Source: a phage | Length of the DNA: 35,820 bases | Reading direction: 5' to 3' (one strand) | Assembly (NCBI GenBank): GCA_037431425.1 | Contig: GCA_037431425.1_4129.3 | Shown here: positions 15,716 to 30,155 of the stretch, in pieces | Position numbering within the stretch: the first letter of the stretch is position 1 | How the letters are laid out: every line of letters starts with the position of its first letter | Program-made: the position numbers and the translations under genes | The notes under the pieces: generated by a model | What the model was told of the DNA's origin: nothing | The model's input: the letters and a program-made list of their open reading frames with translations, nothing else | Databases searched by the model: none

Positions 15716-16078
15716 ATGTCAATTCAAGGTAAACAAGTAATGTCAGGTGAGCACATCGGAACCATCATGCTGGTGGATAATGATATTGCACGTATTATTG
15801 TATCTAAAACATTTTCAGAAAATGATGAAGTTCTTTTGAGTACTTTTGACGGCGAAGAACTTCGTGACGTTCAGGTTAAACATGAACCTGGTATTGAAGG
15901 TGGTCAGCATTTGAATGTAAATGTTCTATCTAAAGAACAACTCATTGATGCACAAAATAACCCTGAAAAGTATCCACAGCTTACTATTCGTGTTAGTGGT
16001 TATGCAGTACGTTTCAATTCACTAACAAAAGAACAACAAGATGATGTAATTTCTCGTACATTCACAAAAGAACTATGA
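15716..16078 (+). CDS. grcA: GrcA/YfiD-like autonomous glycyl-radical cofactor
   Basis: 120 aa; [10 protein letters not shown] and [22 protein letters not shown] closely match E. coli GrcA; SD AAGGAG. Confidence 0.8.
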
Positions 16079-16404
16079 TGGATTTAAAACCAATTGTAGT
16101 GAACAAATACAAAGAACCGTATGATGTGTACATTGGTCGTGGGTCTAAATGGGGTAACCCATTTACCCATATCAATGATAAACAGACAAAAGCCGAATTC
16201 ATTGTTGCTACAAGGGAAGAATCAATTGAAAAATTCCGAGAATACATTATTGACCGTATTTCTAATGGCGAAATTAAAATTGATGATTTACTTGAATTAG
16301 CAGGTAAACGTCTTGGATGTTTCTGCAAACCAAAATCATGTCACGGCGATGTTCTTGTTGAAATAGTGAGTGCAATATTAGATGAATTACCAGACGATAA
16401 TTAA
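16075..16404 (+). CDS. Conserved phage protein resembling the DUF4326 family
   Basis: [15 protein letters not shown] and [13 protein letters not shown] motifs as I recall them for that family; ATGA coupling. Confidence 0.5.
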
Positions 16405-16920: not shown

Positions 16921-16928
16921 TATAAATA
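16921..16928 (+). promoter_or_regulatory. T4-type late promoter box TATAAATA
   Basis: Exact TATAAATA 32 nt upstream of the ATG at 16960. Confidence 0.55.
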
Positions 16929-20270: not shown

Positions 20271-23012
20271 ATGGCTTCTAGACGAATTATAGGAAACGCA
20301 GATATACTAGGGAATTTAAAAATTAATGGAAAGTATGCATTACGTTCCCTTAATGGTGTTCCTGCTGACTCTGCTGGTAAAATCACTTATCAATATTATG
20401 ACAAAGCGGAAGTAAATCAGATGTTTGATATGCTTCCAGTTTCAAGGGTAGGTGATCAAGATTACCTACCAATGAGTATTAACGGAACTTTTGAAGGTGC
20501 TTCTTCCTTTTCATTTGCAAAAATAATGCAACCTTGTATCATTGAAAATGATGGTACTGGTGTAATTTTACGTGCAGGTACAAATGGAAGTTCTTATGGT
20601 TACTATTATACTTATATTAAAAATATAAGAGATATAGAAACACTAACTCAAGATAATATAATTACAACCAATACGATGTATAGACCGTCTGTGCTACCAA
20701 GTACTGATTACATTTATGAATTTTATGGGTCAAATGCATATGAATTACTATTTTGGGAATCAACTGATAGAACATCATATTACCTTACATTAACAAATGA
20801 AACATTGAATGAATCAGCACACAAGCATTGCAGAATTCCAAAAACAGCAATAACAAATAAACCAATATATGCACACATCGTAAATGATTCAGTTTATATA
20901 TGGTGTATGGATTCAAGTGTATTTAGTAGTGTTCGCGGGTGTGCATTTATTATATACACAGTACCTTTAACTGCATTTAATACTGGTTCAGTTTCTACCG
21001 TAACACAGATTGGTGGTTATTCAGGAAGAACTATAAGAGATGCAACATATACTGCATCTAATAATATTCGCGTTTATGATAGCTATTCTATTTTAGGTTC
21101 AGGTGGTGATGCACTAATAGTATATGATAATGGTGTTTCCAGAATAGATTATTGGGAAAATAACGTATTTAATACCCAAGCAGTTCTTAGCCCAGATGGT
21201 ACAAAAATAAGAGTTGCGATCTATCCAGGATTCCGTGTTTTCACTGAAACAAAAACATCTAGTGTATATGCACTTGGTATTAGCTTTACATATGATATCA
21301 GTACTAAAACAATGACACTTGATGGTTCTGAACGTGGTCCAATCAGAGTATCAGCTAATACATCAACTGGTAGTATAACAGTAAGAAACCCGTTTTCAAT
21401 CAATATGGAAAACTTTACAGGGTTTTATGACGGTGCACTTGGCAACTATGGTTCAATCTGTCAAACTTCTGATGGTTTTGTTTTCACTACCAAAGCAAGA
21501 TGGACATCCACACCAACATATGCAGTACAAACATACAAAGTTTCTGGTACACCTTATGATAGTTGGGTCGCTAAAACACGTACTGCTAGTAATTTAAAAC
21601 GTGTCGAAGTAATGCCAGTTTATGGCTCCCCTGTCGGTGAAAACTTAATAGGTGTTCGTTTCGTAGATAAACGTAAGATACTTGTTGCATGTTCTGGCAC
21701 TGCTGATGGAATTTCTTATGGTTATGATAGTACAGTTTTTACTGAAATAGGTGAGAATCCGACTTATGTTTATAAAAACTTGGAACAAAATACCACAATG
21801 AATGGTTTTGCACCATCAAGTAATAGACACTATTTAAGTACTGATTACAAATATGCAGGTATGATAACATTGGTTGATGCAAATGGAAATGTCAGCACTT
21901 ATGGTTCTTCGTTAATAGAAGACATCGATAAACCAGCGTATGGAAAATTCGACCCAGTTACAATGGACTTCGACAGTAATAGATATGAAATTTCAGGAAC
22001 AACATTATCAAGTATAGGTGATAATGCAATTGCTAAAGCTGGATTGTCTGGAATAACTGATCATAAAACTGTTTTTTATTATGTACCTGATACTACATAT
22101 TCTAAATCGATTGCAGTCACTTCTGCATTAAACGGTACTACCAATGTGTGTTATATTATTTTTTCCGAAATATCATGTAGTGCAGTTGGTACAAGTGGTA
22201 CTATAATTTTACGTGGTATTAATGTTGATACAGCAAGATATACATCAATGACGAATACATACCAAATTTCACCAAATGAAATGGTCAAACGTTGGGCTGG
22301 TATGACGGTTTCTAAGTTTAATGGTTTTAACTACTTAGGCGTGAACATTTTATATGGCATTGATACCCCAGGTTGGACTCGTTATCCTAACATGATTGCT
22401 AAAGTGAAAAATGGTATTATTTCAAGTCAACGATATATGGAAACAACTTATATTTCAAACGCACAATTTGATATAGGTACAATTCCAGGGATTGGGTTTG
22501 GATATTACCAAATGAACAAAAACGATTATCAAACTAAATCAGTTTTTGCTGTATGTGGTACTACTGAAGCAGATATGGATAAACTAATATCTGGTAATGA
22601 AACGATATCACAGTACTTAGTTGTTGCTTCTCAGGACGTGGCACAAGGGTTTCATGTATACTTTTCACAAGAAGTACCAGTTTTCTTGGGTGGAAAGTTT
22701 GCAAAGATACCACCGACTATGATAGACTTATCTACTATAAGTACTACACCAGAGAATTCAACATTCTACATATATGCGGTGATGGATAGAGATACATCCA
22801 CAGCATCGTATCAGATATCACTACATCAATTATCAGAAACTATGACATCAACATACATTGGTAAGATAGTAACTAATAATAATGGTATTGCATCAATCGA
22901 GTCTGAAAAAGTTTCCAGATTCTTGCTATACCGTCCAAGTACCTACAATCGTGGTTCTGCGATCCCAGCAAGTTCTGGTGTTCCGTCAGGAACAGGTACA
23001 CGTTGGAATTAA
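20271..23012 (+). CDS. Large late protein (913 aa), paralog C; probable virion fibre/adhesin-like protein
   Basis: N-terminal MLPVSRVGDQDYLP and C-terminal SQDVAQGFHVYF...SSGVPSGTGTRWN collinear with paralog A. Confidence 0.7.
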   Translation: MASRRIIGNADILGNLKINGKYALRSLNGVPADSAGKITYQYYDKAEVNQMFDMLPVSRVGDQDYLPMSINGTFEGASSFSFAKIMQPCIIENDGTGVILRAGTNGSSYGYYYTYIKNIRDIETLTQDNIITTNTMYRPSVLPSTDYIYEFYGSNAYELLFWESTDRTSYYLTLTNETLNESAHKHCRIPKTAITNKPIYAHIVNDSVYIWCMDSSVFSSVRGCAFIIYTVPLTAFNTGSVSTVTQIGGYSGRTIRDATYTASNNIRVYDSYSILGSGGDALIVYDNGVSRIDYWENNVFNTQAVLSPDGTKIRVAIYPGFRVFTETKTSSVYALGISFTYDISTKTMTLDGSERGPIRVSANTSTGSITVRNPFSINMENFTGFYDGALGNYGSICQTSDGFVFTTKARWTSTPTYAVQTYKVSGTPYDSWVAKTRTASNLKRVEVMPVYGSPVGENLIGVRFVDKRKILVACSGTADGISYGYDSTVFTEIGENPTYVYKNLEQNTTMNGFAPSSNRHYLSTDYKYAGMITLVDANGNVSTYGSSLIEDIDKPAYGKFDPVTMDFDSNRYEISGTTLSSIGDNAIAKAGLSGITDHKTVFYYVPDTTYSKSIAVTSALNGTTNVCYIIFSEISCSAVGTSGTIILRGINVDTARYTSMTNTYQISPNEMVKRWAGMTVSKFNGFNYLGVNILYGIDTPGWTRYPNMIAKVKNGIISSQRYMETTYISNAQFDIGTIPGIGFGYYQMNKNDYQTKSVFAVCGTTEADMDKLISGNETISQYLVVASQDVAQGFHVYFSQEVPVFLGGKFAKIPPTMIDLSTISTTPENSTFYIYAVMDRDTSTASYQISLHQLSETMTSTYIGKIVTNNNGIASIESEKVSRFLLYRPSTYNRGSAIPASSGVPSGTGTRWN

Positions 23013-23019
23013 TTTTAAA

Positions 23020-23046
23020 GCTCGTCTATTGACGGGCTTTTCTTTT
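23020..23046 (+). terminator. Rho-independent terminator ending the late operon
   Basis: GCTCGTC-tatt-GACGGGC (one G-U pair) followed by TTTTCTTTT. Confidence 0.6.
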
Positions 23047-23057
23047 GTGTGTATAAT
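23029..23057 (+). promoter_or_regulatory. sigma70-like promoter (-35 TTGACG, 17-bp spacer, -10 TATAAT) overlapping the terminator
   Basis: TTGACG 23029-23034, TATAAT 23052-23057; strong SD AGGAGG follows. Confidence 0.55.
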
Positions 23058-23080
23058 ACAAAGAAATATAGGAGGAAATT

Positions 23081-23647
23081 ATGGTCAAATCATTACTACC
23101 ACCACCAAAACGACATAAAATTAAAGAAATGAAAGAACAACGTACATTAAAGATGTACAACAATTTAGTTAATTTACTTTGCAAAAGTCCATCACTCAAA
23201 GAAATATTCACCACAGATGATGATCGTAATGCACTTATTGAGATGAAGTATATGCTCAGTAAAATGTCCTTTTACAAATTTGTCAAAGAATACTCAACTG
23301 AACCATTCAGTCCTCGTTGGCGAGTCAAACCAAGAGAGTATTTTTTCGGTGGTTCATATACTGATATCATTCAAGATACGGTGATAGGCGTAGAGTTCGA
23401 GATTGATTATGAGCCTAATGGTGTGGAAAACTGGCAGATTGACAAGCATTTACCAAGTGAAGATGAAATTTATGTTTATGCAAGAAAACAGTCAACTTTC
23501 AGTTCAAAAATTGCTCTTAATAATTTAGATTCATTTATTATTTTCTATACATTTGTCGGTGTAGATAAAATGGCAACTAAACTCAATGAATTATCATTGC
23601 AACAAAAACAGATTAATGCATACAAAGACATTACAGATTTATACTAA
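23081..23647 (+). CDS. Hypothetical protein, small-paralog family member 1
   Basis: 188 aa; shares SLKEI..TDDDR..L...KY.LSK and a downstream Trp motif with the next two ORFs. Confidence 0.6.
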   Translation: MVKSLLPPPKRHKIKEMKEQRTLKMYNNLVNLLCKSPSLKEIFTTDDDRNALIEMKYMLSKMSFYKFVKEYSTEPFSPRWRVKPREYFFGGSYTDIIQDTVIGVEFEIDYEPNGVENWQIDKHLPSEDEIYVYARKQSTFSSKIALNNLDSFIIFYTFVGVDKMATKLNELSLQQKQINAYKDITDLY

Positions 23648-23659
23648 TGAGGATTGGAT

Positions 23660-24175
23660 ATGTTTTTTGGACCAATTAGAAAACAAAACAGTACTTTAAT
23701 TTGGCATGAAATCATCTTTAAAATTATATCTAAAAGCTACTCACTGAAGGATATTATCAACACAGATCAAGATAGACGTATCCTTTTAGATGCAAAATAT
23801 AAATTGAGCAAACACCCGTTACTTTCTTTAATCATTGATTACGTTAATGATTATGAATCCAGTCGTTGGAAGTGGGAAGACGGAGGTTTATTTCGTGGAA
23901 AAACATTCTACGGTGCAGAACGATATGTATTCAGTGATACAACAAATGGTGTTAAGTTTGCTATTAGAAACTTTAACTCAAAAGAAAATGATTATCTTGA
24001 AAGTGGAGTTAAGGTGTATATAGATAATAATAGCAATGTGCTTACATATGACGAATCACTAATTATGTTACAAATAATGCGTGGAGTTGAAGGTGTAAGA
24101 CGCAATCTTACTAAGTTGAAAATTCAGCAAAATGATATGCATAATAGACAGAAAATTAAGGGTTTATATAAATGA
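23660..24175 (+). CDS. Hypothetical protein, small-paralog family member 2
   Basis: Track starts at TTG 23654; first ATG is 23660 with GAGG 7 nt upstream; family motif SLKDI..TDQDR..LLDAKYKLSK. Confidence 0.55.
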   Translation: MFFGPIRKQNSTLIWHEIIFKIISKSYSLKDIINTDQDRRILLDAKYKLSKHPLLSLIIDYVNDYESSRWKWEDGGLFRGKTFYGAERYVFSDTTNGVKFAIRNFNSKENDYLESGVKVYIDNNSNVLTYDESLIMLQIMRGVEGVRRNLTKLKIQQNDMHNRQKIKGLYK

Positions 24176-24681
24176 TTTCATTTTTCAAAAAGAAAAAAAA
24201 AGTTGATGAAACAGGATTAGAATCGTTTCTATGGACTCTTATCATCAAAAAAAGTCCATTGATGAAAGAATATGCTATCAATGATGCTAATAGAAAAACT
24301 ATCATTGAATACAAATACGAATTATCAAAATGTGATCCAATCGTTTATCACTTTGCGAAGTACTGTTCTAAAAATTTATCGGATATCACGATTGAACACG
24401 AGTCAGTACCAATGAGTTTTCCTTATGGTAATTGGGTAGATACTTTTGATATTTTTGATGGTTCAAATGGTTTCAGATTCTTTTACTCGTCAAATAAAGC
24501 AAATGTTCGTATTAAAACAGAGATAGGTTGGACACAGCATAGCTCAAATAAAGAAGATTATAATTTACTAGCTGACGTATACCGAAGTGTGAAAAATTCA
24601 AAGGATATTGATGAAAGAATTAAAAAGCAAAATAGTATTACTTTATCACTTGAAACATATAAGTCAAAGTATGGTGGTTAA
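24172..24681 (+). CDS. Hypothetical protein, small-paralog family member 3
   Basis: ATGA coupling; family motif LMKEYAINDANR..IIEYKYELSK. Confidence 0.55.
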   Translation: MISFFKKKKKVDETGLESFLWTLIIKKSPLMKEYAINDANRKTIIEYKYELSKCDPIVYHFAKYCSKNLSDITIEHESVPMSFPYGNWVDTFDIFDGSNGFRFFYSSNKANVRIKTEIGWTQHSSNKEDYNLLADVYRSVKNSKDIDERIKKQNSITLSLETYKSKYGG

Positions 24682-24683
24682 CT

Positions 24684-25085
24684 ATGACTACAGTTGATGA
24701 TATTTACAGCACTATACGCAATATGAGCACAGATAGAAAAGTATTTGGTGATAAAGAAAAATCTAAGTGTTATGGTATTGATTCTTTTGATATAATTTCG
24801 TATGAGTACAACACGAATGGAAATAGTTCACTGAATATTGTCTGCCCTCGTGACCCAGAAAATAATTTTATGTATGTTGAAATTAATAATGATGGAATGT
24901 TTTTTACAAAAGTTTTTAAAGGTGGAATTAATTACGAAACGATTGAATGTATGAATGAAGAAACTTTCTTTCAAGAAGATACAATTATCAATTTAGGTTT
25001 TAGTTTTGATGATTATAAAACATTAGAACATGACTTTAATCGTTATTATAACGGTTTCTTAAAGGAGTTAACAATTTATCTATGA
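24684..25085 (+). CDS. Hypothetical protein
   Basis: ORF in the operon; ATGA coupling with the next gene. Confidence 0.5.
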   Translation: MTTVDDIYSTIRNMSTDRKVFGDKEKSKCYGIDSFDIISYEYNTNGNSSLNIVCPRDPENNFMYVEINNDGMFFTKVFKGGINYETIECMNEETFFQEDTIINLGFSFDDYKTLEHDFNRYYNGFLKELTIYL

Positions 25086-26314
25086 ATAACCAATATGTCG
25101 AACAAACAATAGTGAAACACTTGGCTGGGTCACAAGCCTACGGAACCAGTACACCTGAAAGTGATACTGATTATCGTGGTATTTTTCTTGCTAATAAAGA
25201 ATTTATTCTTACGCCATTCTATAAGGTTAAAGAAGTAGCTGATAAAAATGAAGAAGATACCAAATTCTATGAGTTAAATCAGTATTTAAAATTATACACT
25301 GATGCTAACCCTAATATTCTGGAATCACTATGGGTTGAACCAGAACACATTGTAGAAAGTACTGAGATTTATGACTATCTTCGTTCATTTAACCAAAAAC
25401 TTCTTAGTTCCAAGATTGCATTTTCATACACTGGATATGCATATAATCAAATTAAACGTATGACAAATCACCACGGTTGGATGGATAAAGAGCGTATTGC
25501 TGAAAAACGTTTAAATGAGATTTTAGAAGAACACCCAGTCGATGAGGTTCTTGTGTGGATGTATGATTCATTCCCACAATATCTTGTTGACCGTTTAGAT
25601 ACATCCAAATTACATCCATTTAATGCTAAAAAGATTGATTTTGAAAAATACATGCGTGATACGTCATTGCAGTTAGTTTCGAAAAATCCATTAAAGCAAT
25701 ATCATTTTGTAAGATTAGTGCATAACTACACTACTGATAAAATTCTAGATCGTGATTTCAATTTATTGAATTTTAACAATGGGTATGAACTAATTCATTA
25801 CGGAGAAAACATTTTTGCGATTATTAAAAATCCAAATGAAAGTACAATCAACGGTGATGGTTCATTGCGACATTTTTCAAAAGAGCGTAGTACTGAAGAG
25901 TTGAAAACCAAACCAGAACTAATTGTCAAATTTAACGAAAAAGAATATCAGGAAAATAGTGAGAATAGAAAAAGTTATCATAAATGGAAAGAAAATCGTA
26001 ATGCCAAACGTGCTATTTTAGAATCACTACACGGCTATGATTGCAAAAGTGCAATGCATACCATTAGACTATTGAATAGTGCAGAAGATGCATTACAAAG
26101 TGGGATTATTCAAGTTAAACGCCCAGATGCACAGATGTTGATGAATATTCGTAATGGTAAATGGAAGTATGAAGAAGTTTTAGAATATTTCGATGATAAA
26201 GTAAAATATATCCGTGATGTTCTATATAAGAAATCAGAACTTCCAAAAAAACCAGATATTAAATTAGCATCGAAAATTATCATTGATATCCGAGAGATGC
26301 AATGGTATAAGTAA
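25082..26314 (+). CDS. Pol-beta-superfamily nucleotidyltransferase (RlaP-like)
   Basis: N-terminal GSQAYGTSTPESDTDYRGIF fits the G[GS]-x(9-13)-DxD NTase signature; 410 aa. Confidence 0.6.
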   Translation: MNNQYVEQTIVKHLAGSQAYGTSTPESDTDYRGIFLANKEFILTPFYKVKEVADKNEEDTKFYELNQYLKLYTDANPNILESLWVEPEHIVESTEIYDYLRSFNQKLLSSKIAFSYTGYAYNQIKRMTNHHGWMDKERIAEKRLNEILEEHPVDEVLVWMYDSFPQYLVDRLDTSKLHPFNAKKIDFEKYMRDTSLQLVSKNPLKQYHFVRLVHNYTTDKILDRDFNLLNFNNGYELIHYGENIFAIIKNPNESTINGDGSLRHFSKERSTEELKTKPELIVKFNEKEYQENSENRKSYHKWKENRNAKRAILESLHGYDCKSAMHTIRLLNSAEDALQSGIIQVKRPDAQMLMNIRNGKWKYEEVLEYFDDKVKYIRDVLYKKSELPKKPDIKLASKIIIDIREMQWYK

Positions 26315-26377
26315 TATATGGGTGTAATAGTTATAAAAAATTCCATTACACACCAAATCACTTCAGTGATTTATATC

Positions 26378-26407
26378 TTGACATTGAAAAAAATAATTAT
26401 GTATAGT
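26378..26407 (+). promoter_or_regulatory. sigma70-like promoter (-35 TTGACA, 18-bp spacer, -10 TATAGT)
   Basis: TTGACA 26378-26383, TATAGT 26402-26407. Confidence 0.4.
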
Positions 26408-26408
26408 T

Positions 26409-26438
26409 AGAGAACTTCATATGGAGTTCTCTTTTTTT
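26409..26438 (+). terminator. Rho-independent terminator overlapping the promoter
   Basis: AGAGAACT-tcatatgg-AGTTCTCT followed by TTTTTTT. Confidence 0.65.
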
Positions 26439-26452
26439 ATAAGGGTGATTAA

Positions 26453-26854
26453 ATGTTAAATGAACGTATTAAAAATGCACTATATGTATTGAACCAAGAA
26501 GTTAATTCTATTAATAAAAGTACTGAGCGATATAAAGTATTACATGAAATTAGACAAGAATTGGAATCTATTAATAAGGGAAAATGGGTTCTTGAACGCG
26601 AACGAACTATTGTTGAAAAAGCAATTGCAAAATTCATCTCTGAACGTTATGGTAAAATTTCAGAGGAAGATGTACTAATGAACTTACATCTTTCACAAAC
26701 GGAAGTGATGGAGAAATTTCATTTTGATTCATTAGACTGGTTGGAAATGATCATGGAATTGGAAGAAGAATTCAATGTAGAAGTAGATTTATATTATGAA
26801 AAACAAGAAACCAAACTATATGAACTAGCAGAACATATTAAACTAATGATGTAA
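26453..26854 (+). CDS. Acyl-carrier-protein-like protein with ~60-aa N-terminal extension
   Basis: C-terminal FDSLDWLEMIMELEEEFNVEV matches the ACP phosphopantetheine-attachment region (E. coli ACP [22 protein letters not shown]). Confidence 0.65.
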   Translation: MLNERIKNALYVLNQEVNSINKSTERYKVLHEIRQELESINKGKWVLERERTIVEKAIAKFISERYGKISEEDVLMNLHLSQTEVMEKFHFDSLDWLEMIMELEEEFNVEVDLYYEKQETKLYELAEHIKLMM

Positions 26855-30147: not shown

Positions 30148-30155
30148 TATAAATA
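30148..30155 (+). promoter_or_regulatory. T4-type late promoter box TATAAATA
   Basis: Exact TATAAATA 18 nt upstream of ATG 30174, with AAGGAGAG SD between. Confidence 0.5.

Follow-up and report, generated by a model that had tools for sequence, protein, structure and literature searches.

A family of tandem paralogues with an unmatched predicted fold lies between a terminator-embedded candidate promoter and an RlaP gene in Asteriusvirus-type jumbo phages

RNA-repair counter-defence modules have been described in phage T4, where Pnk and Rnl1 act against PrrC, and in jumbo phages with RlaP, Thg1 and CCA-adding enzymes; a comparative review regards RlaP and Thg1 as RNA-repair counter-measures of jumbo phages (PMC7824862). 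In bacteria, enzymes of the RlaP family extend damaged RNA 3′ ends by one or two nucleotides and are required in vitro to restore the function of over-trimmed tRNA, and T4 NrdC.11 has been placed in the RlaP family (PMC12776372, a preprint). The open reading frames (ORFs) around nrdC.11 in the tk-nrdC region of T4 are small, packed and clade-specific, with a sigma70-type promoter, near nucleotide-metabolism genes (nrdD, nrdG and tk) and the RlaP member. Here we analyzed a similarly organized locus in a phage stretch of 35,820 nucleotides (nt) (GenBank assembly GCA_037431425.1, contig GCA_037431425.1_4129.3; hereafter, the window, numbered from its first letter), in which three consecutive plus-strand genes, P1, P2 and P3, are followed by a gene for a protein of 133 amino acids (a.a.) and by an RlaP gene (Table 1). 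A 3-kb part of the window (22500–25500) matches 36 deposited phage genomes, all of them Asteriusvirus-type jumbo phages of E. coli or Salmonella (310–386 kb), with phage ph0011 as the closest (98.2% identity) and phage 121Q at 92%, which by similarity identifies the window as Asteriusvirus, that is, a 121Q/PBECO4-like jumbo coliphage.

The gene order and orthology of P1–P3 are kept in at least 36 deposited Asteriusvirus genomes, and the genes are called "hypothetical protein" in every annotated record seen; in phAPEC6, 83% of the predicted gene products are without known function. The same family includes phAPEC6 gp319c–321c and RaK2 H6X3F9 (phrog_18641/phrog_7868). Arrays of tandem paralogues are considered one of the routes by which jumbo-phage genomes grew. 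Already known were the genes, recorded in dozens of genomes and in PHROGs as hypothetical proteins, as well as tandem accessory paralogues in jumbo phages; new are the unification of the two PHROGs, the map of the operon and its context, the unmatched predicted fold, the mosaicism of the cassette and the promoter embedded in a terminator.

An earlier note on this DNA, made from the letters alone, had described three consecutive ORFs of 188, 173 and 169 a.a. as a tandem triplication, and all three are present at that place. The second is 173 a.a. long when read from a TTG at 23654 and 171 a.a. from an ATG at 23660; the ATG, which lies 7 nt after GAGGA and is the start codon chosen in all annotated orthologues, is most likely the start, giving a protein of 171 rather than 173 a.a. 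The three ORFs are indeed paralogues. In BLASTP comparisons, P1 and P2 share 28% identity across 175 residues, their full length (E = 1e-15), and P3 is similar to P1 (E = 2e-5) and to P2 (E = 3e-4) in the N-terminal third only. Profile comparisons reach further: phrog_18641 recognizes P1 (5.6e-73) and P2 (4.6e-82), phrog_7868 recognizes P3 (9.1e-57), and the cross-hits between the two PHROGs and P1–P3 (1e-5 to 1e-11) cover the full length. The scores of a family hidden Markov model on the three proteins range from 1e-47 to 1e-56, and a 36-sequence family alignment extends to an invariant C-terminal Tyr. On the combined evidence of profiles, tree and predicted structure, phrog_18641 and phrog_7868, both annotated as of unknown function, are one superfamily, whose members are mildly basic (pI 7.7–9.5) proteins of about 165–190 a.a. 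The similarity is thus formally significant, and none of the three proteins matched a housekeeping family.

The conserved N-terminal motif of the family is KS..L / D..RR..I..KY.LSK. The version proposed in the earlier note has one match in each ORF and none elsewhere in the six-frame translation of the window, provided that its ellipsis stands for two residues; with three wildcards, there is no match. The conserved Trp region that was said to follow is found in P1 and P2 (PRW / SRWKW) but not in P3, which has no Trp at the aligned position. As for the divergence claimed beyond the motif, the middle beta region is variable, but the proteins are homologous over their full length, up to the C-terminal Tyr.

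Judged from their spacing, P1–P2–P3, the 133-a.a. gene and the RlaP gene form a tightly packed five-gene unit of 3.3 kb, with P1–P3 in the promoter-proximal position. P1 and P2 are separated by 12 nt, P2 and P3 overlap in ATGA, P3 and the 133-a.a. gene are separated by 2 nt, and the 133-a.a. gene overlaps the RlaP gene, again in ATGA; no terminator-like site was found on the plus strand from 23040 to 26409. The last gene matches Pfam PF10127 over residues 12–131 (E = 2.2e-15; 57.5 bits vs a cut-off of 23). The 133-a.a. gene lies downstream of the family in all relatives; an earlier MAFFT alignment had misleadingly suggested it as a fourth paralogue, which we rejected because its hhalign probability against the family profile is 0.1. 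A gene of about 150 a.a. in JNE01, Muenster and locus L008, absent from the window, is a possible distant family member (hhalign probability 85%).

Table 1 Features of the locus in the window
Feature	Position	Strand	Details
L899	16960–19659		L913 paralogue; phAPEC6 orthologue gp323c is a virion protein
L913	20271–23012		L899 paralogue
Intrinsic terminator of the upstream virion-protein operon	23017–23049	+	10-bp stem, TATT loop, U tract; hairpin 23017–23040
Sigma70-type promoter	23029–23057	+	TTGACG (23029–23034), 17 nt, TATAAT (23052–23057); 11/12
Ribosome-binding site of P1	23070–23075	+	AGGAGG, read from sequence; conserved in relatives
P1	23081–23647	+	188 a.a.; 121Q gp502 orthologue; phrog_18641
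P2	23660–24175	+	171 a.a. from ATG (173 a.a. from TTG at 23654); 121Q gp503 orthologue; phrog_18641
P3	24172–24681	+	169 a.a.; 121Q gp504 orthologue; phrog_7868; start overlaps P2 stop (ATGA)
133-a.a. gene	24684–25085	+	121Q gp505; phrog_22376; function unknown; unrelated to P1–P3
RlaP-family Pol-beta nucleotidyltransferase	25082–26314	+	410 a.a.; 121Q gp506; PF10127; phrog_388; last operon gene
Terminator-like hairpin and T run, likely operon 3′ end	26409–26439 (hairpin 26409–26432)	+	dG −14.2 kcal/mol, z −3.75

An exhaustive profile search of 1.84 billion representative proteins gave 39 matches at E ≤ 1e-3, of which 37 were genuine; the other candidates, P0020 (2111 a.a.) and P0047 (504 a.a.), which might have been multi-domain members, are repeat proteins and were discarded as spurious. 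The exhaustive search was needed, since word-indexed searches with a single protein or a 13-sequence profile recovered only 5 and 8 close relatives, respectively. In a tblastn search of 50,697 phage records, the family occurred only in Asteriusvirus and Alcyoneusvirus (RaK2, K64-1 and Muenster), and Foldseek also placed it in the Yersinia phages fHe-Yen9-03 and fHe-Yen9-04. Its range is limited to RaK2-like jumbo phages. We then used RlaP as an anchor and fetched 39 viral loci. All 14 loci from RaK2-like genomes of about 350 kb (RlaP 54–96% identical) carry two to four family genes upstream of RlaP on the same strand; family genes are missing from all 25 loci in which RlaP is more distant (33–43% identical in 23 of them).

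The copy number is three in every Asteriusvirus locus examined, two in RaK2-type phages and up to four elsewhere. In two metagenomic relatives, a gene for Thg1, a 3′–5′ polymerase of tRNA 5′-end repair, lies between family copies (L007, 418–1197; L011, 5466–6245), with its stop codon overlapping the start of the next family gene. A DUF4326 gene follows the family copies in most relatives, and an S1-domain gene follows RlaP in L008 and L021. (Among the locus labels, L001 is 121Q and L016 is Ecwhy_1, and the L007–L021 series includes metagenomic relatives.) In two records, OR699183.1 (SD-1_S14) and MH494197.1 (CMSTMSU), the P2 and P3 orthologues are in two pieces, owing to frameshift mutations or sequencing errors.

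The earlier note had also assigned P1–P3 a sigma70-like promoter of their own that overlaps the upstream terminator, and the sequence, the 11/12 score and the conservation of the site in distant relatives bear this out. TTGACG-17-TATAAT is the top sigma70-like match within the 11 kb scanned. It lies inside the 68 nt that separate the P1 start from the upstream stop codon, with its end 23 nt ahead of the ATG and AGGAGG next downstream, so that it has the hexamers, a spacing within 16–18 nt, the intergenic position and the downstream ribosome-binding site and start codon of a sigma70-type promoter. The terminator has the stable GC-containing hairpin (23017–23040; dG −14.4 kcal/mol, z −6.4), the U tract and the maintained stem of an intrinsic terminator, and the phage G17 record annotates this site as one. 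The −35 hexamer spans the hairpin loop and the beginning of the 3′ arm, and the U tract falls in the promoter spacer. This arrangement is kept in 121Q, A4, JNE01, L009, L012, L015 and L019, with promoters of 10–12/12, even though the proteins of the four metagenomic relatives that share it are only 20–40% identical. In Alcyoneusvirus and L011, the terminator and a TTGACA-17-TAAAAT or TACAAT promoter are adjacent, not overlapping. Nine relatives have the promoter at 10–12/12.

The terminator stem covaries. In a 7-sequence alignment, 95.7% of the cells are paired, as compared with 50% or less in slid controls, and 4 of the 10 pairs show compensatory double changes. The outer pairs covary freely, and the three apical GTC/GAC pairs are invariant because they also provide the GAC of the −35 hexamer. 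The covariation clearly argues that the element functions as a hairpin. Such a compact terminator–promoter element could guide the annotation of RaK2-like and Asteriusvirus genomes.

In a neighbour-joining tree, each copy in the window clusters with its positional counterparts in A4 and JNE01, and the second Muenster copy falls with the P3 type. This shows that the array is old and that each copy has been retained, and by this tree the split between the P3 type and the P1/P2 type predates the divergence of Asteriusvirus and Alcyoneusvirus. The triplication of the earlier note accordingly stands as a set of three paralogues, but not as a recent event. P1–P3 are 86–96% identical to their counterparts in 121Q and Ecwhy_1, and the ratios of nonsynonymous to synonymous substitution rates (dN/dS) of close orthologues are 0.09–0.35 (0.09–0.26 vs 121Q and Ecwhy_1), as compared with 0.03–0.36 in the neighbouring genes. 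Relative to A4, P1–P3 are only 35–41% identical, the 133-a.a. protein 61%, RlaP 87% and the upstream proteins L899, g196 and L913 90–94%; relative to 121Q, the pattern is reversed, with L899, g196 and L913 only 44–54% identical. These opposite patterns show that the window is mosaic, with junctions near the P1 start and the P3 end (~23260 and ~24690). In the comparison with ph0011 (99.3% identical over 21 kb), 47 of the 144 mismatches fall in 23500–24750. The cassette stands out as a local hot spot, at which sequences diverge and are exchanged between phages. The description of the genes as rapidly diversifying is thus apt at depth (35–41% vs A4, with flanks at 87–94%), but not in the sense of ongoing positive selection, the dN/dS values being like those of the neighbours. 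Within the proteins, the column entropy is lowest in the helical domain (2.16 bits) and highest in the indel-rich beta region (2.81 bits).

We also predicted the structures with AlphaFold. The P2 model, from 12 sequences, is mediocre, with a predicted local distance difference test score (pLDDT) of 69, and the P3 model, from 36 sequences, is confident (pLDDT 91.3; predicted template modelling score 0.82). The P3 model consists of four N-terminal helices (16–67), a five-stranded antiparallel sheet (73–124) and a 40-residue C-terminal helix (127–167) ending in the invariant Tyr, and the conserved motif sits in the predicted four-helix domain. No solved structure resembles this predicted fold, and a Foldseek search of the BFVD library returned only uncharacterized family members. 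The profile and structure searches thus gave the proteins their PHROG membership, but neither a function nor a known fold. Pfam, NCBIfam and PADLOC gave nothing consistent for the family; a PADLOC match to DUF2290 (E = 0.0012, P1 only) and a Transposase_1 match in one member are isolated and were disregarded. Searches of PDB sequences with full-length and N-terminal profiles found nothing (the N-terminal hmmsearch gave only two chance-level matches), and an hmmscan of 29 N-terminal domains at E up to 10 revealed no helix-turn-helix or regulator family common to the members. A helix-turn-helix in the N-terminal domain was therefore rejected on present evidence; the segment LSKHTLYKLLKDY recalls a recognition helix of this kind, a resemblance that no search supports. 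The closest systems that we considered included the head-plus-stalk proteins XRCC4, XLF and PAXX and the small phage inhibitors AcrIF13, AcrIIA11, SAUGI and PsiB. P1–P3 showed no sequence or fold similarity to characterized anti-defence inhibitors (anti-CRISPR proteins, DNA mimics and the like), and no fold similarity to the N- or C-terminal domain of T4 MotA.

The genes upstream of the terminator differ in type from P1–P3. L899 and L913 are paralogous (E = 3e-54), and the C-terminus of g196 resembles both. A T4-late-like TATAAATA lies at 16921, 39 nt before the L899 start, and another at 30148, 26 nt before a Dps-like gene; the window contains four copies, not above a rough base-composition estimate of about 11, so only their positions are suggestive. 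The virion proteome of phAPEC6, as determined by mass spectrometry, comprises 62 proteins, including gp323c, the L899 orthologue, and gp314c. None of these 62 proteins is an orthologue of P1–P3 (gp319c–321c), of the 133-a.a. protein or of RlaP. Because of the L899/L913 paralogy, the TATAAATA position and the virion data, the region can fairly be described as a late paralogue operon followed by a separate unit of early type, and the late-type operon postulated by the earlier note upstream of P1–P3 is well founded. Its promoter type suggests that the P1–P3 unit may be early.

The explanation that we lean towards, though tentatively, is that P1–P3 are early binding proteins in which a conserved scaffold carries a variable surface, each protein aimed at a different host factor, with RlaP as the repair arm. 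Host RNA polymerase would transcribe the unit before, or independently of, the late genes. The products would be non-enzymatic binding proteins, each presenting on the common scaffold a different, fast-evolving surface to a different target, and the likeliest targets would be host factors that damage or restrict RNA needed by the phage, especially tRNA. RlaP from the same transcript would repair the remaining damage, helped in some relatives by Thg1, so that one module would both inhibit and repair. The operon shared with RlaP, and the Thg1 and DUF4326 genes of relatives, make a role in anti-defence or host takeover plausible. A more specific form of this idea is that P1–P3 are a structurally new family neutralizing host RNA- or tRNA-targeting immunity, with paralogues tuned to different effectors. 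They would be the front layer of an operon that both inhibits and repairs, with RlaP (joined in relatives by Thg1) as the second layer; specificity would reside in the variable face of the beta sheet, and exchange of the cassette between phages would serve adaptation. We regard this form as distinctly more speculative. The family is delimited (two to four copies), restricted to one clade, located upstream of an RNA-repair enzyme, fast-evolving, swapped between phages and of unmatched fold, all traits expected of host-interaction or counter-defence genes, and it therefore offers a testable entry point to early infection by RaK2-like phages. If P1–P3 turn out to be ordinary accessory proteins, a clean operon map still results.

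The locus resembles RNA-repair counter-defence modules in the operon with RlaP, in the Thg1 gene of relatives and in the conservation of the whole module within a clade; it differs from them in that P1–P3 have no detectable enzyme domain and that the operon includes no RNA ligase or kinase gene; a part of P1–P3 in repair is hypothetical. It differs from the T4 tk-nrdC clusters in that no T4 protein was found to resemble P1–P3 in sequence or structure and in that the early timing is presumed here.

Several observations weigh against the proposal of early binding proteins. As for timing, the sigma70-like matches taken together show no enrichment in this AT-rich DNA (68 observed vs 60 expected), so the case for the promoter is carried by its position and conservation; Asteriusvirus-type phages encode an RpoD-like sigma factor of their own, which might use the same promoter type; and our literature search found no Asteriusvirus transcriptome. 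As for function, the dN/dS values indicate that close orthologues are under purifying, not positive, selection. The functional part of the proposal draws on gene neighbourhood, and since all members belong to one phage clade, the conserved neighbourhood might be a product of shared ancestry and not of function. Other phages with RlaP lack the family, which is therefore not a general RlaP partner. In addition, the conserved polar residues (K, S, D, R, R, K, Y, S and K) could equally form a catalytic or nucleic-acid-binding site.

An alternative is that P1–P3 are accessory subunits of RNA repair, which would bind damaged tRNAs or other RNAs and pass them on to RlaP (as well as to Thg1 or an RNA ligase), with a different substrate for each copy. 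The same orientation and tight packing with RlaP in 14 of the 14 RaK2-like loci, the Thg1 gene between copies in L007 and L011, the S1 RNA-binding gene downstream in L008 and L021, and the mildly basic proteins with conserved Lys/Arg/Tyr/Ser motifs all fit such subunits. However, tRNA binders would be expected to evolve slowly, and the family is far more divergent from A4 than RlaP is; other RlaP-bearing phages, and bacterial RlaP enzymes alone in vitro, work without the family; and no known RNA-binding fold or domain was detected. We therefore consider this explanation unlikely, and somewhat more so an alternative in which P1–P3 are early transcription or host-takeover regulators, whose helical domain binds DNA or RNA polymerase and redirects host or phage transcription. 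That the genes come first after a sigma70-type promoter and that the proteins are mildly basic is in line with regulators, and the combination of helical and beta domains loosely recalls T4 MotA. The same hmmscan and PDB-sequence profile searches, however, identified no helix-turn-helix or regulator family, and core transcription regulators should be conserved, whereas P1–P3 are among the fastest-evolving genes of the region.

Two further explanations are much harder to sustain. P1–P3 lie directly downstream of the L899–g196–L913 block in every Asteriusvirus-like relative examined, as might be expected of assembly chaperones for these fibre-like or hair-like virion proteins, and the virion proteome is no argument here, since chaperones are not expected in virions. 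Yet a strong covarying terminator and a separate sigma70-type promoter stand between the family and the upstream genes, the two sets do not co-vary, as judged from their opposite similarities to A4 and 121Q, and Alcyoneusvirus has upstream tail-fibre genes without homology to L899/L913 but retains the link of the family with the 133-a.a. gene and RlaP. We reject the chaperone idea as very improbable. Even less credible is that the genes are decaying or functionless duplicates carried along, for which one could cite the lack of a known function and the split copies in SD-1_S14 and CMSTMSU. A sequencing error is likely for the split copies, because one of the records is UNVERIFIED and the other is shorter than the remaining genomes, and decay is at odds with three intact copies in more than 30 genomes, with the low dN/dS, with the positional orthology maintained across genera and with the confidently predicted fold.

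Several minor observations concern the surroundings of the unit. Searches of the window against Rfam and for tRNAs gave no match, and the RaK2 and Sharanji papers contain nothing on the P1–P3 genes or on promoters. A second strong promoter-like site, TTGACA-18-TATAGT (11/12), is found in the 26378–26432 region and ends 1 nt before the hairpin at 26409–26432; transcripts from this site would begin within the 5′ arm of the hairpin and so escape termination. The same element of TTGACA-18-TATAGT and hairpin also precedes gp510 in 121Q. In 121Q, G17, phAPEC6, A4 and JNE01, RlaP is separated from an acyl-carrier-like gene by the tail-fibre genes gp507–509 of 121Q (~3.4 kb; L001, 12541–15959), which are absent from the window (26314–26453), ph0011 and Ecwhy_1. 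Right after the RlaP stop codon, there is a hairpin with an A-rich loop (UAAAAA) and without a U tract (window, 26319–26354; L001, 12472–12502; L003, 7167–7207; L004, 7587–7631). Its dG is −15 to −20 kcal/mol in 121Q, A4 and JNE01 and weaker, −9.2, in the window, its stem sequence varies by lineage, and it may be a processing or stabilizing element.

Farther upstream, two small genes, one of 120 a.a. and one of the DUF4326 family, lie between nrdD and nrdG (15716–16404). DUF4326 is a predicted enzyme linked to NAD/ADP-ribose systems (PMC7824862). The 120-a.a. gene, which has no match in the compared loci of 121Q and Ecwhy_1 (L001 and L016) and is labelled "pyruvate formate-lyase" in ph0011, possibly encodes a glycyl-radical spare-part protein. 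The DUF4326 gene, located between nrdD and nrdG in the window, stands right after the paralogue array in other RaK2-like phages.

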